Source: Escherichia coli (lineage in GTDB: Bacteria; Pseudomonadota; Gammaproteobacteria; Enterobacterales; Enterobacteriaceae). From it: a stretch of DNA of 64,000 bases. Location of the stretch: assembly GCF_022846255.1 (NCBI RefSeq), contig NZ_AP025682.1, one strand, 5' to 3'. The position numbers and the translations under genes were made by a program. The notes under the pieces are model-generated. The model saw nothing but the letters and a program-made list of their open reading frames with translations. It was not told the origin of the DNA and searched no databases. Below are positions 35,594 through 61,910 of this stretch, piece after piece; within the stretch, counting starts at the first letter, position 1, and each line of letters starts with the position of its first letter.

Positions 35594-35625
35594 CTGCCCC
35601 ATGTGGATATGGGGCAGGATTTTAT
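35594..35625. terminator. bidirectional rho-independent terminator
   Basis: Stem CTGCCCCAT / ATGGGGCAG with 6-nt loop, followed by GATTTTATT; sits between convergent genes. Confidence 0.6.
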
Positions 35626-36626
35626 TGATTAGCGGCGATAATAAGAACAATACCCACAATGTATGAAATAAACATAGTCAGCAGCAGTTTATTGGTTCCG
35701 GCTGGCGCACTGGCAAATTCTCTCCAGATGAAGACTCCCCAGATCACGGCAATCATTGTGGCACCCTGTCCCAGACCGTAGGAAATGGCATAACCCGCCT
35801 GACCAGACGCAATCAAACTGAATGCCAGACCGACACACCAAATCATACCGCCCAGCCAGCCGCAAACATGATCCCGTAAACTCCCGGAAAAATACATTTT
35901 CCTGTTGACAGGTTCTCCTGAAATAGGCTTTTTCATGACCAGCGTGTTAAGGACAAAGTTCGACAAAAACAGCCCCACGGCAAACAGAACAAGTGCTGAG
36001 TACGGCGTCATCAGACCGCTGGCAGGCTGGCTGAAATTGTCAGACATGGAGTCCGCCAGGAAGCGGAAAAACCATCCCATGATGATACCCGCAAGAATGG
36101 CAGTGATGAGGCCTTTGTTACGGCGAGATTTATCCGCCTCCTGCGTGACACGGCCATAGGCTATCGCGGTAAAAATAATGGCGATCACAACGCAGGCGAC
36201 ACCGAGGAACAGAATGAGCGGATCGCCCTGCGGATTGCCGATATAGGTGGTGATCACACCCAGAGCCAGTGCCAGCCCCACCCCCACAGGAAAAGCTACC
36301 GCCATACCGGCAAGATTAATAGAAGCCACCAGAAGAATATTGGAAATATTGAAGATAATCCCTGCCAGTATTGCCGACATCAGACTACTGTTGCTCGCCT
36401 GCTGAATATCAGGTATAAAGCTGCGACCGGCTTCGCCCATAGAACCCAGAGTGAAGGCAAATAACAAAGAACACAGCAATAATCCAATTGAATAATCCCA
36501 ATAGAATAGAGGGAACTCCCATTTTTTATTACTGACAAGTTTAGTTGTATTCGCCCATGAACCCCAGCAAATCATAGTAATAAAACACATTATTATGGCG
36601 ACAGCATACGATTCCACGATAAACAT
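35622..36626 (-). CDS. sugar transporter (DMT/GRP-type, RhaT-like fold)
   Basis: 334-aa polytopic ORF; SD AAGGAG; last gene of the minus-strand mtnK operon. Confidence 0.55.
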   Translation of the reverse strand: MFIVESYAVAIIMCFITMICWGSWANTTKLVSNKKWEFPLFYWDYSIGLLLCSLLFAFTLGSMGEAGRSFIPDIQQASNSSLMSAILAGIIFNISNILLVASINLAGMAVAFPVGVGLALALGVITTYIGNPQGDPLILFLGVACVVIAIIFTAIAYGRVTQEADKSRRNKGLITAILAGIIMGWFFRFLADSMSDNFSQPASGLMTPYSALVLFAVGLFLSNFVLNTLVMKKPISGEPVNRKMYFSGSLRDHVCGWLGGMIWCVGLAFSLIASGQAGYAISYGLGQGATMIAVIWGVFIWREFASAPAGTNKLLLTMFISYIVGIVLIIAANQ

Positions 36627-36729
36627 AAATAACTCCTTGTGGTAGTTATAATCAATCGTTGTGGACAGAGGGCATAACAGCCATTCCTCGAATGGCTGTT
36701 ATATGTTATTAATTAAAATAAAGCTGTAA

Positions 36730-37371
36730 TTACGCTTTCAAACCATACGTTTTGAATTTTTCAAGAACGATGGTCATTTCGGCTTCAGACAGAACGGGAA
36801 CATCGTGATGTAATCCGCCACATTTGATGTATAAATCAGCCAGCGTCTCAGTTTCACCCGCCAGCCACAACGTCTTTTCCAGCGTGACGTCCATGGCCAG
36901 CATACCGTGGTGCTGCATCAGCAAGGACTTACTTTCTCTGATTCCTTGAGATACACTGTCGGCCAGTTCAGGGCTGCCAAAGGTATAATAGGGAATACAG
37001 GGAATATGATCCGTCCCCGATACCGCCACCATATAATGAATAGCCGGAATTGAATGATTATGTATTGCCACCGCCGTGGAATTCACCGCATGCGTATGTA
37101 TGACAGCATTCAATTCTGGTCTGGCTTTATAACACGCCAGATGAAATAGCCATTCACTTGATGGTATTTTACCCGCTTCAGGTATTCCCTTATCGTCTAC
37201 AAAGACAATCATGTCCGGCGTCATCTTTGAATAAGCGATCCCACTCGGTGTAATCAACATGCCACCGGTATATCTGGCACTCACATTACCTGATGTTCCT
37301 TGATTCAGACCTGACGCATTCATTTCCCGACAAATGGAAATGATATTTTCTGCTAACTTAATCCTTTCCAT
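36730..37371 (-). CDS. class II aldolase/adducin-family protein (MtnB-like; DHAP-shunt aldolase candidate)
   Basis: 213-aa ORF; SD AAGGAG; class II aldolase metal-binding His pattern (HTHAVNSTAVAIHNH...). Confidence 0.8.
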   Translation of the reverse strand: MERIKLAENIISICREMNASGLNQGTSGNVSARYTGGMLITPSGIAYSKMTPDMIVFVDDKGIPEAGKIPSSEWLFHLACYKARPELNAVIHTHAVNSTAVAIHNHSIPAIHYMVAVSGTDHIPCIPYYTFGSPELADSVSQGIRESKSLLMQHHGMLAMDVTLEKTLWLAGETETLADLYIKCGGLHHDVPVLSEAEMTIVLEKFKTYGLKA

Positions 37372-37401
37372 TACTGCTCCTTAACAGAAGTGATCGTCGT
37401 T

Positions 37402-38517
37402 TTAATGCAGCTCGTCCTGGAGTGCTTTACTCTTCAGGTCAGCAAACATATCCGCCAGAGCTGACTTACTGGCAGCACAGACTCCCCGTTCAGTAATGAG
37501 GCCGGTAATGTATCGGGCAGGCGTGACGTCGAAAGCGTAGTTCTCACAACGGGTTCCTTCAGGGGCGGTATTGACCCAGCTCAATTCTCCCTGAGTATTT
37601 ATCCCATAGACATGGGACTGCTCTTTTCCGTCACGTTGCTCAATCGGAATGGTTTTTCCGTCCTCGATAGTCCAGTCAATAGTGGGAGAAGGTAGCGCGA
37701 CGTAGAAGGGAACATGGTTATCATGGGCCGCCAGCGCCTTAAGATAGGTACCAATTTTATTACAGACATCCCCTCTGGCCGTGGTTCGATCGGTCCCCAC
37801 TATACAGAGATCAACGTCACCGTGTTGCATCAGGTGGCCACCCGCATTGTCGGCAATCAGGGTGTGAGGAATACCGTGTGAACCCAGTTCAAATGCCGTG
37901 AGTCCACCCTGATTACGTGGCCGCGTTTCATCCACCCAGACGTGAACAGGGATTCCGTTTTCATGCGCTTTATAGATGGGAGAAAGCGCGGTTCCCCAGT
38001 CTACGGTCGCCAGCCAGCCTGCGTTACAATGTGTCAGGATATTGACCACACTCCCGGCCGATTTTTTCTGGGCTATTTCGCGGATGACTTCTGCACCATG
38101 TAATCCAATTTGTTCGCACAACGCGACATCTTCCTCGGCAATTTCTGCCGCCAGCGCCCAGGCCACATCCTTGCGCTCTGATACACAGAGATCCTTCAGT
38201 GTGGCTATCATCCTGTCGAGAGCCCATTTGAGGTTAATTGCAGTTGGTCGGGTTTTGATAAGAAGGTCATAGTAACGCTGCAGACCTACGTCACTGGCAT
38301 TGTGGTTCATTCCCAGTGCGATACCATATGCCGCAACGACACCAATAAGCGGGGCGCCACGAACCCACATCTCCTGAATAGCCGCAGCGGCCATTTCCGC
38401 AGAGGTAAGCGCCACCACTTCAAACTTAAAAGGCAGCTTAGTCTGATCGATGATCTCTACCGCTTTTCCATCCCCGGAAACCCAGACCGTTCGGTAGTGT
38501 TTACCTTTAATATTCAT
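37402..38517 (-). CDS. mtnA: 5-methylthioribose-1-phosphate isomerase family (MtnA-like)
   Basis: 371-aa ORF; SD AAGAGG; eIF-2B alpha/beta/delta-type isomerase pattern. Confidence 0.85.
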
Positions 38518-38526
38518 AATGACCTC

Positions 38527-39786
38527 TTACTTAACCTTCGCAGACTGGATGACGGAGTCCATATTTTTAAACTGGCGGGCATTGACAATAAGATCGCGCG
38601 CCATGGTCAATGCACGTCGTTCACATTCTGCGCGAAGCTCTGTATTTTCAATCTGTTTCAGCTCGGCAACGCCAGCAAAACCAATGATCCGGCGATTCAT
38701 TTCCATGCCGGCATTCACCAGGGAATCTTCAAGCAGCGTGGCAAAAAACTGATCCTGTGCGTCCTCAAGAGCGGCCCTGTTCTGTTGATACATTTCTGTC
38801 GGCCACGCGTCACCCTGTGTTTTGTTGTCCCAGAGCTGGCGGAACTCCCGGGTGAAAACTGACCAGGTGTGGACAATCTGCTGAAGTAGCCATTCCTGAT
38901 AGTCAGCGCGACGTTGCTCATTTGCATCCCACCCAGGGCGTGAGAAGAACGCCAGCAGGAGGTTGCCAATATAGTTGCCGATATCAAACGCCATTGGTCC
39001 CATGAAACCGAACTCCGGATCAATCACTTTGGTATCCGTGTCGGTCACCATGATTGAGCCTGAATGAAGGTCACCATGTAACAATGCCTGCGCTTCTGTC
39101 ATAAATTTGTACTTATAACGCATGGCAACCTGGAGCATCTCTACATCAGCCCAGGCCTTATGGACGGCATCGTCCAGCTCAGGAGAAGTCCAGTTATTCC
39201 GTTCCGCGTTGTAATAGGGCTCTGTGAAGATCAGATCTTCCGTAATTTTGCACAGCTCATGATTCAACGCGAACTCAGCAGTAAGCGCTTTTTTCTGTTC
39301 TGCTGACATGCCAATGTCAGACGTATTAAAGAGAGTCTGTGCTAAAAATCTGCCGATATCTTCAGCTAGCTTAGGGAATTTTTTACCGTTAATCAGTCCC
39401 TTACGCAGAATTACGTGAGGCGTCAAATACTCCATGGCAAACAGTGCCATTTCCGGGTCATAAAAATAGACCTGGGGAATCAGTGTGTGACCCGCGTACT
39501 TGGCTTCCTGACATAAGACGTTGTACTCAAAGCCCGCACGGCTCAGAGATAAAGGCCATCCTTCGCCCCCTGCACGAAGCCAGGGCAGAGCTTGTTTTAC
39601 AATGATGGTTTTATGTGTCCCCTTAACGATAAACACCATGTTCAGGTTTCCGTCCCCCACTTCTGAAACTTTCCACTCTTCTGGTAACCCTCCCGGTTCG
39701 CATGAAGGGGTCAGTCTGGACGAGAGATAACCAGGCAGCGTGTCACATGTCAGCGGCTTGTAACCTGATGGAATTGAATCCGTCAT
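38527..39786 (-). CDS. mtnK: 5-methylthioribose kinase family (MtnK-like)
   Basis: 419-aa ORF; SD AAGGAG; aminoglycoside-phosphotransferase-like kinase with MtnK pattern (EVGDGNLNMVF...IVKQALPW...HGDLHSGSIMV...KVIDPEFGFMGP). Confidence 0.85.
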   Translation of the reverse strand: MTDSIPSGYKPLTCDTLPGYLSSRLTPSCEPGGLPEEWKVSEVGDGNLNMVFIVKGTHKTIIVKQALPWLRAGGEGWPLSLSRAGFEYNVLCQEAKYAGHTLIPQVYFYDPEMALFAMEYLTPHVILRKGLINGKKFPKLAEDIGRFLAQTLFNTSDIGMSAEQKKALTAEFALNHELCKITEDLIFTEPYYNAERNNWTSPELDDAVHKAWADVEMLQVAMRYKYKFMTEAQALLHGDLHSGSIMVTDTDTKVIDPEFGFMGPMAFDIGNYIGNLLLAFFSRPGWDANEQRRADYQEWLLQQIVHTWSVFTREFRQLWDNKTQGDAWPTEMYQQNRAALEDAQDQFFATLLEDSLVNAGMEMNRRIIGFAGVAELKQIENTELRAECERRALTMARDLIVNARQFKNMDSVIQSAKVK

Positions 39787-40300
39787 AACAGTTCTCCTTA
39801 TCTACACAGAATGATAACTGACTTATCATATGGCAACTATACTTTATCATGTGTAAAGTAATTTGTGATGCATGTAGATTTTTTGAACTGGAGAAAATTA
39901 AAAATAATGTTGTATGGAGTCATGATCTTTACAGGAATTAGTAGGGTGCATTCCTGTTATTTATATAAAATTCATTGTATTACATAAAAATGACGGTGCT
40001 GCGCGGGGAATTGTCTCGGGCAATCTTAGACGAAAGGAAGTATTGAAGTGACAGAATAATCTACATTTTTTATACATGTGTATTTTTCTGTTGTCTTTTG
40101 TTTTTAGCGTATGGTGTTTTTATGCCGATGTCTAATAGACAGATAGATTCGAGGGCCAACAGCCCCATTATCATGATGGAGCAACAGAGGTGAGTCTAAC
40201 GTTTCCGTACTTCTTATCGATCGGCACTAACAATCCTTTGTGATAACGGTATTCCCACACAGAGAAACCCACGTACCTGAATAAAAAAAAGATTACTGGT

Positions 40301-40700
40301 GTGGAAATGGGATTAACAGATTATGCCATCAAATCGGATGGTAATGAGGTCAATAATCCTCGTCATCTCATTAACGTCAACTGTAATCTGCGACGCAAAT
40401 TAGCCAGCATGATGAATAATAAACACAATCTGGCAAGAGCGTTAGGTGATGCTGATTGGCACGGCTTTATCAACAAACTGGAGTACAAGGCAGCCGAAAA
40501 AGGCGTTCATCTGGTAAAAATCGACCAGTAGTTTGTCTGTTCGAAAAGCTGCTATTGTTGTGGTTACAAAATGTTGCTTCAAAAACGGATCTGGCGATGC
40601 CCTGAATGCGGTGTTGAACATGACCGGGATATAAATGCGGCAATCAACATAAAACTTAAAGACATACAGGAATTAAAGGCGGCGGGCCCCGTCGTCTCTG
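40301..40700 (+). pseudogene. IS200/IS605-family TnpB (OrfB) remnant with internal deletion and frameshift
   Basis: Two frames encode TnpB-like pieces (...WHGFINKLEYKAAEKGVHLVKIDQ and ...RIWRCPECGVEHDRDINAAINIKLK...); no intact ORF; subterminal hairpins follow. Confidence 0.55.
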
Positions 40701-40984
40701 TCTATGGAGGAGCTGCGTAAACCCGTCGTACAGACGGTTGCAGCCTGAAAAGTGGGAAGGCCTTGCCCGATTGGGCGGGGAGTAGTCACCCTTGGAGTCA
40801 TTTTTATCCGGTGTATTAATATGCTCCTAATAGTTAATCTGGTTATAATATTTTTTTTTTGATTATGATCACGAAAATATCTCGGTTTTTATTTGCAAAA
40901 CTTGAAACGTGAATCCAAAAAAGATAAATATTTGTCCGCAGTGACTTCTTTTCTGTTGAAAAGTTCAATCTAAAGGGCAAAAAA

Positions 40985-42097
40985 ATGAAAAAAATTACAG
41001 TGGCACTTTCTGTGGTTGCGGCATCTGTTCTGATGGCAATGTCTGCACAAGCGGCAGAAATCTATAACAAAGACGGTAACAAACTGGATCTGTACGGCAA
41101 AGTTAATGCAGAGCATTACTTCTCTTCTTCAGCTAGTGATGACGGGGATAAAACTTATGCTCGTATGGGTTTCAAAGGTGAAACTCAGATTAATGACCAG
41201 TTAACCGGTTTTGGTCAGTGGGAGTACGAATTTAAAGGTAACCGTACTGAAACTGAAGGTTCTGATAAAGATAAAACTCGTCTTGCGTTTGCAGGGCTTC
41301 GCTTTGGCGATTATGGTTCGCTCGACTATGGTCGCAACTACGGTGTAGCTTATGATGTTGGCGCTTGGACTGACGTGCTGCCGGAGTTTGGTGGAGATAC
41401 CTGGACTCAGACTGATGTATTTATGACCCAGCGTGCTACTGGCGTAGCGACCTATCGTAACAATGATTTCTTCGGCTTGGTTGATGGTCTGAACTTTGCT
41501 TTGCAGTATCAAGGTAAAAATGATAGTGCTGCAAAAGTGAATAACTGGAAAGGCCGTGACGAAGTTGAATCTAATGGTGATGGCTTTGGTCTGTCAGCTA
41601 CTTACGATTATGAGGGATTTGGCGTTGCTGCAACCTATGCAAAATCTGACCGTACTGATGGGCAGGTATCCTATGCTAAAGACAGCCCTCTGAATGCCTC
41701 TGGTAAAACTGCTGAAGTATGGGCTACGGGCCTGAAATATGATGCAAACAACATTTACCTGGCTGCAACTTATTCTGAAACTCAGAATATGACAGTCTTC
41801 GGTGATGACCATATCGCAAACAAAGCGAAAAACTTTGAAGCTGTTGCTCAATACCAGTTTGATTTCGGCTTGCGTCCGTCCATCGCTTACCTACACTCTC
41901 GCGGTGAAAATATTGGTGCGTTCGGTAACCAGGATCTAGTTGAATACATCGACGTAGGTGCGACTTATTACTTCAACAAAAATATGTCCGCTTTCGTTGA
42001 CTACAAGATCAACCTGATTGATGAAAGTGAATTTACCAAAGCATCTGAGGTTGCAACCGACAACATCGTTGCTGTTGGTATGACCTACCAATTCTAA
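40985..42097 (+). CDS. nmpC: general porin, OmpC/OmpF family (NmpC/Lc-like)
   Basis: 370-aa ORF; signal peptide [23 protein letters not shown]; mature N-terminus [17 protein letters not shown] and C-terminal ...YQF typical of enterobacterial 16-strand porins; closest recalled match NmpC/Lc. Confidence 0.85.
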
Positions 42098-42172
42098 TTT
42101 TGGTAGGTAAGAATATGCGGGAAGGGAGTGATGTCACTGCCCGCATATAGGTGGCACCCTCATGCCACCTTT

Positions 42173-42205
42173 GAAGAGGCAATTTTATTGCCTCTTCTCA
42201 ATTTA
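42173..42205 (+). terminator. putative rho-independent terminator after porin
   Basis: 10-bp stem GAAGAGGCAA / TTGCCTCTTC, 5-nt loop, T-rich tail. Confidence 0.45.
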
Positions 42206-42252
42206 ACTTCATGTTATTTATTACCCTTTTATTGATTTGAAACTCTATTGTT

Positions 42253-42280
42253 GGGGCGCTTTGTTGCGCCCATTTTTTTA
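42253..42280 (+). terminator. rho-independent terminator
   Basis: Stem GGGCGC / GCGCCC followed by ATTTTTTTA. Confidence 0.6.
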
Positions 42281-42350
42281 CACCAATTAGGTAAAGTTAT
42301 TTTTAAGTAATCGAGTAACTTGATCCTACCCACGTAATGTGGACACGGCC

Positions 42351-43205
42351 CTAAGCGAGATTATGGTTTTCAAATTGTTCCGGGCTGAGACCGCCACAGG
42401 CACTGTGACGACGCCAGCGATTGTAATCACACTCGATATAATTAAACACCGTTGCCCGCATTATTTCCCGGCTGCTAAAGCGTTCCCCGTGGATACATTC
42501 CACCTTCAGCGAATGAAAGAAGCTTTCCACACAGGCATTGTCATAACAGTAGCCTTTCGCACTCATACTGCCACGCAGGTTGTGTCGCTTCAGCAGCGCC
42601 TGATAATCCCCTGAACAGTATTGACCACCACGGTCCGTATGAACAATGACGCTTTCCGGGCGTCTTCTCCGCCACAACGCCATTTGCAGTGCATCACAGG
42701 CCAGTTGTGCTGTCATTCGCGGTGACATCGACCAGCCAATGACGGCGCGTGACCACAGGTCGATGACTACTGCGAGATACAACCAGCCCTCATCGGTACG
42801 CAAGTACGTGATGTCACCCGCCCACTTCTGGTTCGGGCCACTGGCGCTGAAGTCCTGCTCCAGCAGATTCTCCAATACGGGCAGACCATGTGCACGGTAG
42901 CTGACCGGGCTGAACTTCCGGCTGGCTTTCGCCCGCAGCCCCTGACGACGCAGGCTGGCGGCAATGGTTTTAATATTGAACTCCGGCAGTTCGTCAGCAA
43001 GGCGGGGATCACCGTATCGCTGCTTTGCCTCAAAGAATGCCTTATGGACAGCGGCATCGCAGGTGAGCCGAAACTGTTGGCGCAGGCTCATCTGGTGACG
43101 ACGCCTGAGCCAGACATACCAGCCGCTGCGGGCAACCCGAAGTACACGACACATCGCTTTGATGCTGAACTCTGCCCGATGATTTTCGATGAAGACATAC
43201 TTCAT
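42351..43205 (-). CDS. IS3 transposase OrfB
   Basis: 284-aa DDE ORF ([26 protein letters not shown]...). Confidence 0.9.
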
Positions 43206-43501
43206 TTCAGGCGCTTCGCGAAGTATGTCGCGGCCTTTTGGAGGATGGCCAGTTCCTCAGCCTGCTCCGCCAGTTGTCGTTTAAGGCGGACATTTTCAGC
43301 GGCCAGTTCGCTTTCGCGCTCTGACGAACTCATTTGTTGCTGCTGTTTACTGCGCCAGGCATAAAGCTGAGATTCATACAGGCTGAGTTCACGGGCTGCG
43401 GCGGCCACACCGATGCGTTCAGCGAGTTTCAGGGCTTCGTTACGAAATTCAGGCGTATGTTGTTTACGGGGTTTCTTGCTGATTGATACTGGTTTTGTCA
43501 T
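43202..43501 (-). CDS. IS3 transposase OrfA
   Basis: 99-aa HTH OrfA; overlaps orfB (ATGA) for -1 frameshifting. Confidence 0.9.
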
Positions 43502-43833
43502 GAGTCACCTCTGGTTGAGAGTTTACTCACTTAGTCCTGTGTCCACTATTGGTGGGTAAGGTCACGGCGGGGTTAGGTGCGTGCGCTGAACAAAATGACG
43601 AAGGTAGGAATGCCAGAAAGCGTGCGTATTGCCTGACGGTAGCAACCAGCTGAAGGGATGCTTATCCCCAAACCTGATTTATTCAACAAAGCCGCTATAG
43701 CCTTACCGGAACAATCACCACCTCCCCTGGAGGTGGTCAAGAATACAGCTCTGGCGAGCCGCATACCTTTAATTACCTGCTCTGATTAGATAAATCAGAT
43801 GCAGGTACATAAGTATGCCAGCATTATATGCAA

Positions 43834-45024
43834 TTAACGTTTCCGTCCTGGAAATACAAATAGTGCAATAACGGGAGATATTACCATCAGAACAAAAACA
43901 TAGGTAAATCCAAGTGTAAATCCGCCTGTTAGATCGACCGACCAGCCAATTAACTGACTGTTTATCGTTGCCAAAATAAATGTACAAACCCAGAAGGTGG
44001 ACATTGAATAAGTAACAGTTTGAGTATTCGCATTTTTTTGTTCTTCTTTTGGAATGGAGAAGATGAATGCAAACCAGGTGGCAAAAATAGAACCCGTCAA
44101 AAACGAACAAACCAATATAACGATATCATTAGTGGCAAATAACATTGCAAAGGTTGTAATAGCCATAAAGATACTGGAAATAAATAGCCATGATTTATAA
44201 TTATACCCACGGTTTTTAAAGTACGGCCCCATCAATGCACCAAGTAAAATCCCCACCTGATTGACTGTGCCACTCAAGTGAGCACAGGAGTCAGGGGGAA
44301 GATTAGCATATTTTGCATAGTACAGAGGCAGAAATGTGAACATAAAAATCATCATGATCATTGCCCCAGCATACTGAATAATCATTCCCCAGACAATACG
44401 ATTAAACAATACATCCTTTAATACAGATATTCGCTGTTCATAACTTATAGATATATGGCTATTCTGTTGTTGCTCTTCATCCGTGAAACATATTATCCAG
44501 ACAACCCCCAATATTAACGTAATTATTCCATAGATAGCTAACAGATTACGCCACCCGTTGAACAGCAGTGATAAATAACCTGCCAATGTCAATGCAATAA
44601 TTGTACCGATAATATTTGAAGTGCAATTTATACTATTTAATGTTGACGCCATTTTGTTATCGAAAAAGCGAGCAACCGTGGGCACCAGTGATACAAGGCA
44701 AATAGCCCCCCCCAGCCCACCAAGAAAACGAATAATCAATAACAAAGTAAAGTTATTAATAAATGGAATGAGCAAGGAGCTCCCAATCATTATACATCCA
44801 AGAAAATAGGATTTTCGGGTGCCGAGCCGGGAAACAAAGACTGCAGTACAAACAGCTCCCACAATTTTAGCCCATAAAATTACATTTGACATCAATGCAG
44901 CATGTGATACATCAACATTAAAATCACTCATAATTTGTGGCATTACGGCCCCTGTCGTAGCCCAGGCGGCACCAAATACCATATAAACGGTGTAAAGAAT
45001 GAATTCAATGACCCATTTTTTCAT
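43834..45024 (-). CDS. MFS transporter
   Basis: 396-aa 12-TM ORF; SD GAGG; 4-nt overlap with upstream peptidase gene. Confidence 0.8.
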   Translation of the reverse strand: MKKWVIEFILYTVYMVFGAAWATTGAVMPQIMSDFNVDVSHAALMSNVILWAKIVGAVCTAVFVSRLGTRKSYFLGCIMIGSSLLIPFINNFTLLLIIRFLGGLGGAICLVSLVPTVARFFDNKMASTLNSINCTSNIIGTIIALTLAGYLSLLFNGWRNLLAIYGIITLILGVVWIICFTDEEQQQNSHISISYEQRISVLKDVLFNRIVWGMIIQYAGAMIMMIFMFTFLPLYYAKYANLPPDSCAHLSGTVNQVGILLGALMGPYFKNRGYNYKSWLFISSIFMAITTFAMLFATNDIVILVCSFLTGSIFATWFAFIFSIPKEEQKNANTQTVTYSMSTFWVCTFILATINSQLIGWSVDLTGGFTLGFTYVFVLMVISPVIALFVFPGRKR

Positions 45025-46274
45025 TTTTGTACCTCAGGGACACTTAGCTCAACCATTTCCAGCAGCATTTCACTGGCAAGACGCAGGGATTCCACAGGCA
45101 AAAACTCTCTGGTTGAGTGAAAATTGTGCGCCCCTGTAAATATATTAATAGTAGGCAGCCCTTTTGGGGTGATGACGCTACCATCATAACCACCGCGCAT
45201 AATCAGTGGTTTTGGTGTAATGCCAAGGTTACGCATTGCCTGTCTAACGTTATCTAAGATTGCAGGTGTTTTATCAAGCGCTGGTTTGACATTTTCATAT
45301 ATATCGGTTAACACTAATGTTATTCTTTCACTCTTCCAGCGCTGATTAATACTCTTAACAATGTTCTCGAGTACGGCTTTACGTTGTTTATATCCTGTTA
45401 ACTCAAAGTCCCGAATAGCAATATCAAGCGTGGCGCTGGCTGTATCACCATGGAGATTATGGACCCAATAATATCCTTCCCGTTTTTCAGTATGCTCAGG
45501 CCTTTCTTTTTCAGGTAATGCGGCGATAATTTCCGTTGCTATACACAACGCATTAACAAGCTTACCTTTAGCACTCATTGGATGTGCTGTAACACCACGA
45601 ACTGTAATTCGTGCACTACCTGCATACCAGTTTTCAACAACATATTCTCCAATCTCACAACAGTCGAGACAGATACCAAAATCAGAATTCAGTTCACCAA
45701 CATCAAGCGCTTTTGCCCCTCTGATACCGGTCTCCTCATCAGGCAAAAGAACAAGACGAATATCACCATGAGAAAAGGAGGGTGTATTAATCATATATTT
45801 GAGAGCTTCAACACCTGCTGCAATGGCAGCTTTGTCGTCAGCCCCCAGCAAGCTGGTGCCATCAGTTACAATAATATCCTGACCGATATAGTTGAGTAGT
45901 TCTGGATTATCCTGTGGGGATAGTTTTTCCACACTCCCTGCAAACGGTATAGCACCTCCGTTATACTTTTTCACTCGGAAAGCATGTGTATCTGTACTGT
46001 GGTCCGGAGCTGTATCAAGGTGTGCAAAGAATACGATAGAAGGTGCATCAGGAATATTAGCGGGTAAATGAATTGTGGCAATAGCATTTTCTTTTATGCT
46101 TGTTTGTACCTCTGGAACATCAGAAAATTGACTTACAACATATTCTGCCAGTTTATATTGATTTTTACAGCTTGGAAGCTCCTTGCTACCATCAACCGAT
46201 GTCGTATTTATTTTTGTGTAATATAAAAAAGTCTCAATTATTTTCTCTAAGTCAATGCGTTTTTTCATGATCAT
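45021..46274 (-). CDS. peptidase T-like M20-family metallopeptidase (tripeptidase-like)
   Basis: 417-aa ORF; M20 metal-ligand motifs (HLDTAP; GADDKAAIAAGVEAL; HGDIRLVLLPDEETGIRGA). Confidence 0.8.
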   Translation of the reverse strand: MIMKKRIDLEKIIETFLYYTKINTTSVDGSKELPSCKNQYKLAEYVVSQFSDVPEVQTSIKENAIATIHLPANIPDAPSIVFFAHLDTAPDHSTDTHAFRVKKYNGGAIPFAGSVEKLSPQDNPELLNYIGQDIIVTDGTSLLGADDKAAIAAGVEALKYMINTPSFSHGDIRLVLLPDEETGIRGAKALDVGELNSDFGICLDCCEIGEYVVENWYAGSARITVRGVTAHPMSAKGKLVNALCIATEIIAALPEKERPEHTEKREGYYWVHNLHGDTASATLDIAIRDFELTGYKQRKAVLENIVKSINQRWKSERITLVLTDIYENVKPALDKTPAILDNVRQAMRNLGITPKPLIMRGGYDGSVITPKGLPTINIFTGAHNFHSTREFLPVESLRLASEMLLEMVELSVPEVQK

Positions 46275-46556: not shown

Positions 46557-46719
46557 CGTGGAAAGACGACATCAATAGCTTGGTGTAACTCTGGTCAACA
46601 ACCAGTTGCACGGAGTTGCATATGAATTCAGGAGCTTTTCACTGGTGCACCTATATTGGCATATCTGAACCGCCCCGGAAATCCTGGAGACTAAACTCTC
46701 TGAGAAAGAGGCAAACAGG

Positions 46720-46785
46720 ATGACTAAAAAAACACGTTTTTCCCCCGAAGTCCGTCAACGGGCAGTTCAATGCTTTGTCGAATAA
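46720..46785 (+). pseudogene. IS3-family OrfA 5' fragment
   Basis: Encodes MTKKTRFSPEVRQRAVQ, the N-terminus of IS3-family OrfA proteins; stops after 21 codons. Confidence 0.4.
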
Positions 46786-46899
46786 ACATTTACCTGAACG
46801 ATTAACTGCAACGGCTATCCTTACCGACAATCAACGTCAATAAAAATCTGTACTGACTCGTCAGCACTGGGTTCGATCAGTAGGAACATGAATTCAAAG

Positions 46900-46990
46900 G
46901 CCACCTTGCTGAATCTCAAGACTCCTCCGATTCCAAAGATAAACCCCGTCTTAAGTTCGCTGGCCTGAAATTCGGTGACTATTGTCTATA
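46900..46990 (+). pseudogene. porin gene fragment
   Basis: Encodes EFKG...DKPRLKFAGLKFGDY, matching the conserved beta-strand 2-3 region of the intact porin (EYEFKG...[17 protein letters not shown]). Confidence 0.4.
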
Positions 46991-47191
46991 TCGGGATCAC
47001 CACGGTTGTGTGATTAATCATCGTCGATCATAAAGCGTCTATGGATGTACTGCGGCGTTCCTGCTACTGGTGATCACCCTGTGGTTGTGCAATTCCAAAC
47101 GGCTGAAGCGAGAGTAACAGACATCACGCCGCAATCGGGGGCGGCGTGTAGACGTGGTTAATTACTATCAAATATATTAATCAGGCCGATT

Positions 47192-48643
47192 CTATTTGCT
47201 TTCATTTATGGTTTCCATCATGAGCTGTTGCTGCTTTTCTTTGGACAGTCGAGCGATACCAAAGCCTGTGAACCCCCACAGCGTCGCAAAGAAAATGCCA
47301 CTCCAGCAGAGAATAGCCCACGGAAGATAGCTTAATGTAGCAACGCCAAGTGTACCTGCCATGTAGGCACCCGCGGCAGTCCAGGGCAGAATTGGTTCAA
47401 ATATGGTGGCAGAGTCTTCTACAGTCCTTGCCAGATTTTTTGGATGTAGGCCGCGCTCAATATAAGCACTTCGTAGCATTTCAATCGGAATCAGGATTGA
47501 TATCTGACCATTACAGGTCACGCTAATCATTGTTAAACCACAGGCAATAGTCGCAAGAATCATGGTTCCTGTGGAATGAACTAATTTGAGCAGATTATGG
47601 ACGATGACTTCTAAAGCGCCGCTCAAGGCTAATGTTCCTGCAAATGAAAGGGCGCAGAAACAAATAAGCAACGTACTCATCATCGAGTTCATGCCACCGC
47701 GGTTTAACAAATTACCTAATAGCGGATTAACATCTTTATCGGTAAGCATTGAAACGTTAAATCCGTCTACTGCACTTTTAACAATGTCGTGTAGTGCGAA
47801 CCCCTGAATAACGCTGGCGTTGATCATGGCTACCAGTGCCGAAACAAGCATAATTGGAATGGTTGGTTTCTTGGTAATCGAACCGTACAGGACAATGGCA
47901 ATGGGTAGCAATAACAATAAATTAAAATGATAAATTCCTTTTAATCCTTCAGTGATTAGCTGAATTTTTTCGGGAATGGTTGAGCCGCCGAGCTCGCCAT
48001 TCATCCCATAGAGCGTCATAACAAAGGCTGACAGTATCAATGAAGGAAGGGTTGTATAAAGTAAATGAGCGATGTGTTCATAGAGATCTATCTGGGCTGC
48101 CATTGCGGCTAAGTTAGTATCACCAGAAAGGGGAGACAGTTTGTCCCCGAAGTAAGCCCCTGCCACAATAGCGCCTGCAGTTGCTGCCAGATTAGCCTCC
48201 ATTCCGATAGCCACACCCATAAACGCAACACCGACGGTGCCTGCGGATCCCCAGGATGTCCCTGTGCATACAGAAACGACGGCAGTAACGAGCAGGGCCG
48301 TCACATAGATCATGGAAGGATTTATCAGAATAAGGCCGTAATAAATCATCAGCGGAATAGTACCGCCTATCATCCATGTCCCAATCAGGAGGCCCACGCT
48401 GATCAAAATTAGCAGAGCAGGCATTGTTTTAGCGATTTTCTGCGATATTGATTCAAGGATTGCATTGTAGCCATACCCCAACCGCTTAACTAACAGTGCA
48501 GCAATGACGGTTGAAAGAACCATTAATGGCTCAGGTGGCAGATCGAATGCCGCATAACCAAATCCCAGCAATAGTATCATCGCTAGTATTGGTAATAATG
48601 ATTCCACCAGAGTTGGGGATCTTGGAGTATTGTTATTATTCAT
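47192..48643 (-). CDS. NhaC-family transporter
   Basis: ~484-aa polytopic ORF (ATG 48643, SD AGGAG inside the upstream gene's 3' end); NhaC-type pattern. Confidence 0.75.
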   Translation of the reverse strand: MNNNNTPRSPTLVESLLPILAMILLLGFGYAAFDLPPEPLMVLSTVIAALLVKRLGYGYNAILESISQKIAKTMPALLILISVGLLIGTWMIGGTIPLMIYYGLILINPSMIYVTALLVTAVVSVCTGTSWGSAGTVGVAFMGVAIGMEANLAATAGAIVAGAYFGDKLSPLSGDTNLAAMAAQIDLYEHIAHLLYTTLPSLILSAFVMTLYGMNGELGGSTIPEKIQLITEGLKGIYHFNLLLLLPIAIVLYGSITKKPTIPIMLVSALVAMINASVIQGFALHDIVKSAVDGFNVSMLTDKDVNPLLGNLLNRGGMNSMMSTLLICFCALSFAGTLALSGALEVIVHNLLKLVHSTGTMILATIACGLTMISVTCNGQISILIPIEMLRSAYIERGLHPKNLARTVEDSATIFEPILPWTAAGAYMAGTLGVATLSYLPWAILCWSGIFFATLWGFTGFGIARLSKEKQQQLMMETINESK

Positions 48644-50285: not shown

Positions 50286-51515
<1,230 letters not shown>

Positions 51516-59561: not shown

Positions 59562-60824
59562 TTATTTTAATGGATTATTAATCTTTGCATATTCAAATGG
59601 ACTGATAAATCTTTCTCTATTTGCATCCAGAAAATCGGCCCACCATTGTAGCATCAGTCGACGTTCTTCCAGATGTTCTGCTTTATGAATGTAAGCAGCA
59701 CGTACACCATTACGCTCCTGATGGCTCATCTGACGTTCCACAGCATCGCGGGACCACAAACCTGATTCAATCAATGCACTGCACGCCATCGCCCGGAATC
59801 CATGGCCACAGACTTCCTGGGTTGTGTCATATCCCATAACCCTCAGGGCTTTATTTACGGTATTTTCGCTGATTGGTTTACGTGGGTCATGTGCCCCCGT
59901 AAAGATCAGACCATTTTCACCAGCCCATGTCTGAAGTTCTGTCAGTATGGCTACAGCCTGTTTGCTGAGTGGCACAAGATGTGGTGTTCGCATCTTGGAG
60001 CCTCGGTGTGAGAATTTTACGCCTGGCAGAGGTTCGCGTTCGGCTGGAATAGTCCACATGGCATTGTCAATATCAATTTCAGACCAGCGGGCATATCTGA
60101 GTTCACTGGAACGAATAAAAACCAGTAAATTCAGCATAACTGCCCGTCGGGTGACAGGCTGGCCTTTATAACCGCCAATACGCGACAGAAGTTCAGGCAG
60201 ACGTGAAAGATCCAGAGCTGGGCGATGCTGGCGTTTTACCGTAGTCAATGCACCAGCCATATCCAGAGCCGGGTTATATCTGATGATGCCAGACTGTACG
60301 GCATAACGCATTACAGCAGATATTCTTTGCTGCAGACGACTGGCGATTTCATAAATTTGTTTAGCTTCTGCAGCACGAACAGGGATAAGCAGGTCCGGGG
60401 TACTGAGTGTTGTGATATCCCGGTTGCCGATAAAGGGGAATACGTGTGTCTCGAGGCTTTTGAGTACTTTATCGCTGTGTGATTGTGCCCATTGTTTATT
60501 ACTGGCATGCCAGCGTCGTGCAATATGTTCAAAAGAGAGCTGTAAATCAGGGACTACTTTTTTAGCTCTTTTCTGTTCGCAAGGGTCAATCCCCTCCGAA
60601 ATCAGTTTTCGGGCCTCATCCCGTTTTGTACGAGCTTCGGAGAGAGAAACTTCTGGATACACACCAAGTGCCAGAGTCTTCTCCTTACCCAGAATACGAT
60701 AACGGAGACGCCAGTAACGGGAACCATTAGGATGAACCAGCAGGAACATGCCGGCCCCGTCAGTGAGTTTATAAGCCTTGTCAGTGGGCTTTGCAGCCCG
60801 GATTTTTGCGTCAGTCAGCGCCAT
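59562..60824 (-). CDS. int: P4-type tyrosine integrase adjacent to tRNA-Phe
   Basis: 420-aa ORF; SD AAGG; P4-family N-terminus (MALTDAKIRAAKPTDKAYKLTDGAGMFLLVHPNGSRYWRLRY) and C-terminal catalytic region; tRNA upstream on the same strand. Confidence 0.9.
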   Translation of the reverse strand: MALTDAKIRAAKPTDKAYKLTDGAGMFLLVHPNGSRYWRLRYRILGKEKTLALGVYPEVSLSEARTKRDEARKLISEGIDPCEQKRAKKVVPDLQLSFEHIARRWHASNKQWAQSHSDKVLKSLETHVFPFIGNRDITTLSTPDLLIPVRAAEAKQIYEIASRLQQRISAVMRYAVQSGIIRYNPALDMAGALTTVKRQHRPALDLSRLPELLSRIGGYKGQPVTRRAVMLNLLVFIRSSELRYARWSEIDIDNAMWTIPAEREPLPGVKFSHRGSKMRTPHLVPLSKQAVAILTELQTWAGENGLIFTGAHDPRKPISENTVNKALRVMGYDTTQEVCGHGFRAMACSALIESGLWSRDAVERQMSHQERNGVRAAYIHKAEHLEERRLMLQWWADFLDANRERFISPFEYAKINNPLK

Positions 60825-60978
60825 AGTTCAGCCTTCTGAATGCGTTAAAGAGGGTACAAATTCTGTCGAACTGGGGTATACCCGCAATTATACCCACACA
60901 ATGGGGTTGATGTGGGGGGAATCTGGTTGAGTTCGGTAGAATTGATTTGTAGGTAGAACGCTTAAATTGTGGCGTTCT

Positions 60979-61010
60979 GAAACGAAAAACGGACCTCCGT
61001 GGAGGTCCGT
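60979..61010 (-). terminator. rho-independent terminator 3' of tRNA-Phe
   Basis: Minus strand: stem CGGACCT / AGGTCCG followed by TTTTTCGTTTC, 11 nt after the tRNA 3' end. Confidence 0.6.
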
Positions 61011-61021
61011 TGATATGAATT

Positions 61022-61097
61022 TGGTGCCCGGACTCGGAATCGAACCAAGGACACGGGGATTTTCAATCCCCTGCTCTACCGACTGAGCTATCCGGGC
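61022..61097 (-). tRNA. pheV: tRNA-Phe (anticodon GAA)
   Basis: Reverse complement reads GCCCGGATAGCTCAGTCGGTAGAGCAGGGGATTGAAAATCCCCGTGTCCTTGGTTCGATTCCGAGTCCGGGCACCA, the E. coli tRNA-Phe sequence incl. CCA; pheV copy inferred from flanking yqgA-speC. Confidence 0.95.
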
Positions 61098-61202
61098 AAC
61101 GGGGCGCATTAAACCTGATTCGCCTCGTCTCGTCAATCAAATTTCTTCAATTTAGTGCAGACTGCACAATCTATCATCACTTTGCCGCTATTGCACGCAT
61201 TG

Positions 61203-61910
61203 TCAGGCAAACCAGGCGGTCCAGGCGGCGGAAAGCGGCATTGCCAGAAGGAGTGCTGGAAGCATGTTGACCACCGGGAACATTTTAATGCCACAGATGC
61301 GTAATCCGGTTGCCAGCAGCAATAAACCGCCTACGGCGCTGAAGTCTGCCATCATCGACGGTGTGGTCAGCGGTAATATCAGCGCGGCAGCCCACGCCAG
61401 TGTTAACTGGATGATCAGTAATGGAATGCTAATCACCGACACCGCAATACCCAGCGAGCAGGCGAAGATCATCGCCGTAAAGAAATCAAGAAATGACTTG
61501 GCGATTAAAATACTTGGATCGCCGGTCATCCCTTCGTTCATCGCCCCGAAGATTCCGGTGCCGCTGGCGCAAAACAGGACAATAATCGCGACAAAATTCT
61601 GAATAAAAGATTCATGCGCTGGCTTCTTACGCGAGTGGTGAAACAGATTATGCGCTTTGGCGACCACTGTATTGACGCCTTTTTCCAGCAGACAAATTTC
61701 GCCGATTAATGCTCCGAGTAAGGTTGCTAAAACCATCGCCGGAAGGTTGGCGCATTTCACCACCAGTAAAATACCAATCCCCAGCGATGCCAGACCAAAA
61801 ATTGATGTCATGGAGACGCGGATACGTTCCGGTAAGCGTTGGCTAAGGAGTGCGCCGAAAACGCCACCCAGTAAGACTGCACTTGCGTTGATAAAAGGGC
61901 CGATGACCAC
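61203..61910 (-). CDS. yqgA: DUF554-family inner membrane protein YqgA
   Basis: 235-aa polytopic ORF matching E. coli YqgA as recalled. Confidence 0.85.

Follow-up and report, generated by a model that had tools for sequence, protein, structure and literature searches.

An accessory P7-type porin unit of the NmpC/Lc/OmpD clade, with an ipeX-like 3' region, in a tRNA-Phe island of Escherichia coli

When an intact porin gene is found among insertion sequences (IS) on an E. coli chromosome, is it the strain's core ompC or an accessory copy, and if accessory, from where did it come and what could it do? The question is raised by a stretch of 64,000 nucleotides (nt) from E. coli contig NZ_AP025682.1 (assembly GCF_022846255.1), hereafter called the window. 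A model's reading of the bare letters (the sequence-only reading) had pointed at an NmpC/Lc-like porin gene as mobile cargo between an IS605-family TnpB remnant and a complete IS3 element. From the analysis presented here we conclude with high confidence that the locus as a whole is best explained as part of a tRNA-Phe island that carries a self-contained porin unit of 1.5 kb; the unit is accessory, belongs to the NmpC/Lc/OmpD clade and is of the variant known from P7/P1 phage-plasmids. The features are collected in Table 1.

Table 1 Features in and around the porin unit, in positions of the window (ORF, open reading frame; CDS, coding sequence; UTR, untranslated region; HMM, hidden Markov model).
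Feature	Position	Strand	Basis
Porin cassette (upstream regulatory region, CDS, 3'UTR, terminator), block common to P7 and P1-like phage-plasmids	40797-42320	+	megablast blocks, blastn to P7
Intact NmpC/Lc-type general porin gene, 370 amino acids (aa)	40985-42097	+	ORF listing, family scans, structure and multiple alignments
CRP-like palindrome TTTGA-N6-TCACG (putative function)	40858-40873	+	comparison of upstream regions
Predicted promoter: -35 TTGAAA, 17-bp spacer, -10 TAAATA	40902-40930	+	block kept in DLP12 nmpC and other alignments
Structured 3'UTR, homologue of the ipeX region in the 3'UTR of DLP12 nmpC, with three hairpins, conserved single-stranded motif and terminator	42098-42279	+	alignment, covariation
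IS200/IS605-family remnant: C-terminal part of tnpB, frameshifted, with internal stop, and right end of the element	40233-40796	+	partial TnpB HMM matches, Santai annotation
Complete IS3-family ISEc16	42321-43564	-	ORFs, inverted repeats, RefSeq annotation with programmed frameshift
IS5-family element fragment directly right of ISEc16	43576-43696	.	about 80% matches to IS5-family transposase regions
IS3-family (IS1203/IS629-like) left end and first 21 orfA codons, truncated	46652-46785	+	sequence matches
Relic of a second, DLP12-type nmpC porin gene, 116 bp	46866-46981	+	83.6% to DLP12 nmpC nt 220-329
psiE pseudogene fragment abutting the porin relic	46984-47117	+	RefSeq annotation of colinear Santai and ST131 sequence
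GRP-family sugar transporter, class II (fuculose-phosphate-type) aldolase, mtnA, mtnK	35622-39786	-	
P4-type integrase beside tRNA-Phe	59562-60824		
tRNA-Phe	61025-61097	-	Rfam 68 bits, ARAGORN

The product of the gene matches Pfam PF00267 Porin_1 over the entire profile (positions 1-337 of 337) with 493 bits, the cut-off being 23.7. Its signal peptide, as read from the translation and a multiple alignment, is of the NmpC/Lc type with the pattern MKK(L/I)TVA…MAMSAQA, and it is followed by AEIYNK, which is the point where the mature chains of solved porins start to align. The PEFGG motif of loop 3 (L3) and a C-terminal YQF are also present. Three solved porins, OmpK37, OmpC and OmpK36, could be aligned with the protein from end to end at 445-454 bits, and from these alignments it very likely folds into a trimeric 16-stranded β-barrel. 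The closest solved relative is OmpK37, which is a quiescent porin.

One explanation of the locus would be that the gene is the core ompC (or ompF or phoE) orthologue of the strain, later hemmed in by IS elements. The gene product does share with E. coli OmpC the Pfam/GBP family, OmpC and OmpK36 are among its best matches to solved structures (approximately 445-452 bits), RefSeq and the Prokaryotic Genome Annotation Pipeline (PGAP) label it “porin OmpC”, and the cut-off of the NCBIfam “porin OmpC” subfamily model is passed with 532 bits against 484. However, the protein stays under the cut-offs of the PhoE and OmpF equivalog models, and the identities point elsewhere. In one multiple alignment with reference porins, it was 97.6% identical at the amino acid level to NmpC of P7, 95.1% to a P1-like plasmid allele, 88.1% to a chromosomal gene of E. 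fergusonii, 81-84% to the lambdoid phage and DLP12 NmpC/Lc alleles (81% for both DLP12 NmpC and Lc) and 78.7% to Salmonella OmpD, as compared with 61.5% to OmpN, 61.1% to OmpC and 58.3% to OmpF of K-12. A neighbour-joining tree from the same comparison places it within the NmpC/Lc/OmpD clade, where it groups with P7 and E. fergusonii in one subclade. The sequence-only reading had called an intact porin of the NmpC/Lc type, and this assignment is borne out.

The position of the gene leads to the same answer. The core ompC of the K-12 reference is found in the order apbE(ftp)-ompC-micF-rcsD, whereas the window porin lies between the tnpB remnant and ISEc16, near mtnK in the tRNA-Phe island, with no micF adjacent to it. 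Strain Santai, which is 99.9% identical over the porin module, has in addition an intact ompC of its own at the canonical locus, apbE-ompC-rcsD. Finally, a search of 5426 complete E. coli genomes with the 1524-bp unit found any copy in only 172 of them, and a copy at least 99% identical in 12. It is clear that the porin is accessory and not core ompC, which is also how the sequence-only reading had taken it when it set the gene apart from the core ompC and ompF orthologues; the core-orthologue explanation is rejected on identities, synteny and distribution, and we give it hardly any credence.

The 12 genomes with copies of at least 99% all have the unit in one and the same tnpB'-porin-IS3 context, and the 10 of these that were listed are chromosomal. 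Over the nine closest genomes, which come from ducks, mink, chickens and humans, the porin module is 99.6-99.9% conserved. Two of the 12 strain names, FXCREC004 and FXCREC035, include “CREC”, which may stand for carbapenem-resistant E. coli. Copies at 90-99% identity are found in approximately 100 genomes, overwhelmingly on replicons of 90-160 kb, and wherever the flanks of such copies were inspected, the genes follow in the P1 order porin-ssb-lyz. The remaining 58 genomes have copies at about 72-80%, and the near-full-length ones among these (approximately 79%) are other chromosomal alleles, likewise amid IS debris.

When the window porin is compared with its relatives, the differences are concentrated at residues 181-196, 226-248, 273-282, 300-322 and 345-357. 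Because these blocks coincide with the gap-rich regions of the alignments to the solved OmpK37 and Omp36 structures, we read them as putative surface loops. The segment around the PEFGG constriction motif does not vary among the Escherichia NmpC/Lc sequences, and Salmonella OmpD differs from them at only two residues there.

The limits of the cassette are sharp and they lead to its closest known relatives. Every match on a plasmid or phage spans window positions 40797/40800-42321 exactly; for P7, blastn gave 95.2% nucleotide identity over 1527 bp (window 40800-42321). The left edge coincides with the end of similarity to full IS605-family tnpB copies (around position 40794), and the right edge is the first base of the ISEc16 inverted repeat (42321). 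In P7 itself the porin gene is part of a 1.87-kb P7-specific segment (5483-7349 of the P7 locus, L001) that stands in place of the isaA-IS1-isaB region of P1. Of this segment the window keeps 5814-7340, so that its right edge is at most 10 bp from the P1 backbone while approximately 330 bp are gone at the left.

The closest known relatives are thus NmpC of P7 (AF503408, AAQ07495), the porins of phages JL22 and phi456 and those of many P1-like plasmids of 90-160 kb; the porins of P1-like phages and plasmids other than P7 are 95-96% identical to the window protein. The P7 protein has the same signal peptide and nearly the same length (370/371 aa), and the upstream region, 3'UTR and terminator are all homologous. 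The two units differ in that the one in the window is chromosomal and bounded by IS ends, whereas that of P7 is embedded in the P1 backbone between the odaA/hxr side and ssb, and the porins differ slightly in one predicted surface loop (residues 233-235). DLP12 NmpC and Lc of phage PA-2 are of the same clade and have the same type of signal peptide, and promoter block, porin, structured 3'UTR of approximately 165-185 nt and terminator follow in the same organisation. However, the window allele belongs to another lineage (79-82% nucleotide identity), its neighbours are not Q and the lysis genes of a lambdoid prophage, and it is intact, unlike the K-12 nmpC gene, which is broken by IS5. The sequence-only reading had referred to NmpC/Lc porins as prophage-borne genes; phage-borne relatives were indeed found, but the nearest source is the P1/P7 phage-plasmid lineage and not lambdoid phages of the DLP12/PA-2 kind. 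Our literature searches on the porin of P1-like plasmids returned no specific description of it.

The porin copy of the P1-like plasmids is in several cases itself split by ISVsa5 or an IS3-family element, so the plasmid-borne porin is also subject to IS inactivation. A shared porin-IS3 unit on the P1-like plasmids was considered and rejected, as the IS3 element that some of these plasmids have is 1.7 kb away, beyond ssb, lyz and a holin gene, and its identity with ISEc16 is only 81.6%.

A chromosomal source has to be weighed against the phage-plasmids. In E. fergusonii (CP058057.1, locus L010, 3956-7113), rseX is followed by a 351-aa porin gene, apparently the yedS orthologue, and then by the gene for the 88%-identical 370-aa NmpC-type porin. 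This last gene shares the promoter block and comes with a perfect CRP site and a 3'UTR of the ipeX-like kind, and housekeeping-type genes lie on its other side. This locus looks chromosomal and non-mobile, and is possibly the ancestral locus of the P7-type porin. The cassette in the window might then stem from such an Escherichia locus near yedS/rseX through homologous or IS-mediated recombination, with the P1-like plasmids having acquired theirs independently. We consider this unlikely, since the P1-like alleles are much closer to the window (95-97.6% at the amino acid and 95% at the nucleotide level) than the E. fergusonii allele is (88% and 82.6%), and since the homology to the plasmids comprises the whole 1.52 kb including the non-coding flanks, whereas plain blastn to E. 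fergusonii covers only positions 40922-42098. Salmonella OmpD, with 79% amino acid identity and a nearly identical L3 constriction segment, likewise occupies a chromosomal site that is not mobile, beside the gene of an EamA-family transporter, and its signal peptide differs from that of the window porin.

The IS elements on the two sides of the cassette are as the sequence-only reading had described them, and the end coordinate it had given, 43564, is the exact end of the IS3 element. On the left, the ORF 40301-40531 gives weak partial matches to the guided_TnpB and IS200_TnpB models, all below cut-off and limited to approximately profile positions 271-341; the identical stretch of Santai (window 40230-40748) is annotated as a frameshifted, stop-containing and N-terminally truncated InsQ/TnpB pseudogene, and similarity to full tnpB copies (approximately 79%) stops at around 40789-40794. 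On the right, ISEc16 has orfA (helix-turn-helix; 43202-43501) and orfB (DDE/rve; 42351-43205) overlapping in a frameshift arrangement, and terminal inverted repeats (TG…CA) of 39 nt with 74% complementarity. A target-site duplication of the 3-4 bp expected of a simple insertion was not found at ISEc16: its flanks, TAACT on the left and CGGCG on the right, form no direct repeat, and the element is therefore placed at a rearrangement junction instead of representing a simple insertion. At the overlap between orfA and orfB there was also a sub-threshold match to the ALIL pseudoknot, a frameshift-stimulating structure of the IS3 family (43129-43229, minus strand, 21 bits against a gathering score of 50).

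Since the porin is bracketed by two IS-derived sequences, and this three-part arrangement recurs in 12 genomes, it could be argued that tnpB remnant, porin and ISEc16 move as one composite transposon. The two flanking elements are, however, of unrelated families (IS200/IS605 and IS3), one of them is a truncated pseudogene, and no target duplication surrounds either ISEc16 or the whole unit. Moreover, all 12 copies have a single flanking context with mtnK on one side, in the nine closest genomes the opposite side is taken by MFS-pepT (the major facilitator superfamily, MFS, transporter and peptidase T genes), and neither IS junction of the cassette was carried by any of the PLSDB plasmids in which they were looked for. 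Because the two flanking elements belong to different families, with one truncated and no duplication, we rejected the composite transposon as very improbable.

Downstream of the porin gene the unit carries a conserved RNA region. The 182 nt from the stop codon to the end of the T-run align with the 3'UTRs of DLP12 nmpC, lambdoid phage ev099, an O111 allele, P7, a P1-like plasmid and E. fergusonii. In local alignment to the K-12 nmpC 3'UTR the score was 54, whereas dinucleotide shuffles scored 17.5 ± 2.4 (z = 15); the identity is 61%, and the window sequence is approximately 20 nt longer. Folding of the family with RNAalifold gave three hairpins and the terminator, with compensatory double changes in 9 of 30 pairs. 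As many as 96% of the alignment cells were paired, compared with 40-53% when the partners were slid by 1-3 columns, and the observed covariation score was reached by none of 500 shuffles. With seven sequences from two main lineages, the covariation lends moderate support to the predicted structure. The loop of hairpin 2, CCCUCA, and the single-stranded UGUUAU(U/A)UAUUACC, followed by CUUU in most members, are invariant or nearly so. There is a single intrinsic terminator, a hairpin at 42254-42271 with a T-run to 42279. The sequence-only reading had given the gene its own terminators in the plural; one of these stands, and the other hairpins belong to the conserved structured 3'UTR.

The RNA IpeX was reportedly first described by Castillo-Keller et al. 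in 2006. It is defined in the 3'UTR of nmpC, on the porin transcript between the porin stop codon and the rho-independent terminator (PMC12197685), and IpeX of the DLP12 nmpC 3'UTR is described in two papers (PMC12197685, PMC5069750). From the homology we read 42098-42279 as an ipeX-like element, which may share the activity of IpeX in reducing OmpC and OmpF. Salmonella ompD differs in this respect, having only a short terminator and no ipeX-like 3'UTR. Rfam scans of the 3'UTR in the window and in its relatives reported no IpeX family. They did give a sub-threshold match to GcvB (window 42093-42279, 28.4 bits against a gathering score of 42, E 0.003), with 23.7 bits for the E. fergusonii 3'UTR (L010 7106-7277) and no match for the other relatives. 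Identity with GcvB was rejected, because five 3'UTRs of the family aligned with K-12 gcvB no better than dinucleotide shuffles (z about 0), so that the match is a generic resemblance of hairpins and terminator.

The upstream region bears on the expression of the unit. The CRP-like palindrome of the window has counterparts across the family at the same relative position, and in four relatives (P7, the chromosomal allele of O111, E. fergusonii and a 73% allele, P0073) these read as a perfect TGTGA-N6-TCACA. Downstream of the palindrome there is a conserved block TTGAAA-17 bp-T(A/G)AATA. The promoter was not called by a consensus scan and is assigned from these conserved alignment blocks. Expression of the Lc and OmpD porins is under catabolite control and depends on cAMP-CRP. 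The CRP-like site would fit such control, and the degenerate copy in the window, with which the unit differs from that of P7, may mean weaker activation.

It could also be suggested that the porin gene, though intact, is a quiescent relic like ompN or the IS5-disrupted nmpC of K-12, which is carried passively, is not expressed and has no current role. Such a relic would agree with the CRP-like half-sites being degenerate relative to four relatives, with the 41% GC of the region, with the decayed IS and pseudogene fragments all around, and with the closest solved relative being the quiescent OmpK37; low GC is typical of silenced horizontally acquired DNA. On the other hand, the unit keeps an intact ORF and promoter block, and its Shine-Dalgarno region, 3'UTR hairpins and terminator are likewise undamaged; the conservation described above (99.6-99.9% for the module in the nine closest genomes, at least 99% for the cassette in 12 of 12) also speaks against a relic. 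The flanks are furthermore trimmed almost exactly to the transcription unit, as selection for retention would give, although chance could do the same. On balance we regard the quiescent relic as doubtful, but as a more serious contender than any of the other rival explanations above.

Two sequences near the start of the gene, ACAGTGGCA (codons 5-7, window 40997-41005) and GCAGTGAC (5'UTR, 40939-40946), are kept across the NmpC family, and we take both to be nearly complementary to the 5' end of the small RNA (sRNA) RybB. The nmpC gene has been reported as a target of RybB (PMC3333887).

The island also holds traces of another porin gene. The sequence-only reading had noted a porin fragment at 46900-46990 beside IS orfA fragments about 5 kb from the intact gene. 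The fragment is real but is shifted and slightly larger (46866-46981). In a comparison with a set of eight porin genes it matched DLP12 nmpC (E 7e-32), while with the intact porin gene it shares only 69% identity, and it translates to EFKGHLAESQDSSDSKDKPRLKFAGLKFGDY. The orfA fragment beside it was also found, as a stub at 46720-46785 encoding MTKKTRFSPEVRQRAVQCFVE*, and the sequence 46652-46775 is 92-97% identical to left ends of IS3-family (IS1203/IS629-like) elements. The junction comprising IS3 stub, porin relic, psiE relic and nhaC (46668-47200) is found at approximately 99% identity in 329 genomes, including O25b:H4-ST131. Because the junction is common to so many genomes, the relic is older than the lineage of this strain and unrelated to the P7-type gene; it would have been left by an earlier IS3-mediated decay and inherited by many lineages. 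Judging from these alignments, porin DNA of the NmpC family has entered the island on at least two occasions and from different lineages, and one copy has decayed to 116 bp. The suggestion of repeated IS-mediated acquisition or decay of porins thus holds as far as repetition goes, but the two events are independent and differ in age and lineage.

The region is part of the E. coli chromosome and is a mosaic island with the order sgcR and yjhIHGFU, the mtnK-mtnA-aldolase-transporter cluster (35622-39786), the porin module, MFS-pepT, IS debris and nhaC. The four-gene mtnK cluster, which presumably is the “dihydroxyacetone phosphate (DHAP) shunt” for salvage of S-adenosylmethionine (SAM) by-products, is found in 1088 of the 5426 complete genomes, and the window allele shares only about 93% identity with the common one. 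The match to the common mtnK island stops at around 40235, beyond which other strains have unrelated genes. The MFS transporter-peptidase T pair (43834-46274) is rare in E. coli, being at least 99% identical in nine genomes, and is found at 87% identity on plasmids of approximately 62 kb. The segment from 40.2 to 47.2 kb is thus a patchwork of small modules parted by IS ends.

The attachment end of the island (59562-61910), on the pheV side, is marked by tRNA-Phe with the core genes yqgA and speC beyond it. A leuX/KpLE2-type island, as suggested by the yjh and sgc genes, was rejected on account of tRNA-Phe, the adjacent integrase and yqgA/speC. Beyond approximately 51 kb the window departs from Santai, and none of the complete genomes in the collection matched 50-64 kb at 80% coverage or more, so that this arrangement is not represented among them. 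Within the island there is a full-length match to the Hfq-binding sRNA isrC (51355-51477, minus strand, 135 bits against a gathering score of 39). For glpT of Santai (L024, 46626-47984) the annotation gives a pseudogene that contains an internal stop; this has no connection with the porin.

How, then, could the unit have arrived at this site, and what could it do? We propose that it was supplied by a P1-like phage-plasmid or from a common donor pool, and that IS-mediated rearrangement would have trimmed or joined it, as suggested by the right end of an IS605-family element at its left edge and the left end of ISEc16, without target duplication, at its right. Only the transcription unit would then have been left behind. 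When transcribed, probably with the aid of cAMP-CRP as in its relatives, the unit would supply an extra trimeric 16-stranded porin, while the ipeX-like 3' region of the same transcript may lower OmpC and OmpF. The net effect would be that the set of surface porins is swapped, and with it the receptors for phages and colicins and the permeability. By analogy, the unit would work like Lc/NmpC with IpeX, P7 NmpC being its nearest named relative.

Several of the observations above weigh against this proposal and limit how firmly its steps can be put. Because no sampled plasmid has either IS junction and the best plasmid alleles reach only about 95% nucleotide identity, both the route and the direction of the transfer are presumptive. 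The ultimate origin may be chromosomal, since the 88% relative in E. fergusonii sits in a core-like chromosomal context, and as identity between the 3'UTR and the characterised ipeX of DLP12 is only 61%, the function of IpeX is transferred to this 3'UTR provisionally. Finally, each half-site of the CRP-like sequence departs by one base from those of its relatives, and with 41% GC the region is AT-rich, so that the porin could be poorly expressed or silenced.

A more far-reaching version, which we put forward as tentative only, is that the unit is a free-standing “porin-swap” module, in which a CRP-responsive NmpC-type porin is coupled to an ipeX-like RNA that shuts down OmpC and OmpF. Such a module would circulate among P1-like phage-plasmids, lambdoid prophages and chromosomal islands, and would here have been retained by selection after IS-mediated deletion of the other phage-plasmid DNA. 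If this is true, a prophage-free lineage would gain a heritable change in its phage and colicin receptors and in its permeability to antibiotics.

As far as we have checked, the chromosomal P7-type unit, the ipeX-like region in this lineage and the conserved CRP-like site have apparently not been annotated before. The RefSeq name “porin OmpC” hides both the origin of the gene and the RNA element linked to it, and replacing it would be a useful correction of the annotation. Accessory porins of the NmpC type alter a surface receptor as well as a diffusion channel, and hence matter for sensitivity to phages and colicins, recognition by antibodies and entry of β-lactams and carbapenems. Collectively, these data indicate that a porin unit of the P7/P1 type can persist in the chromosome without its phage-plasmid and with the ipeX-like 3' region still attached. 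We see in it a modest case of a phage accessory (“moron”) gene domesticated through IS activity; it is a known kind of mobile cargo and involves no new mechanism.

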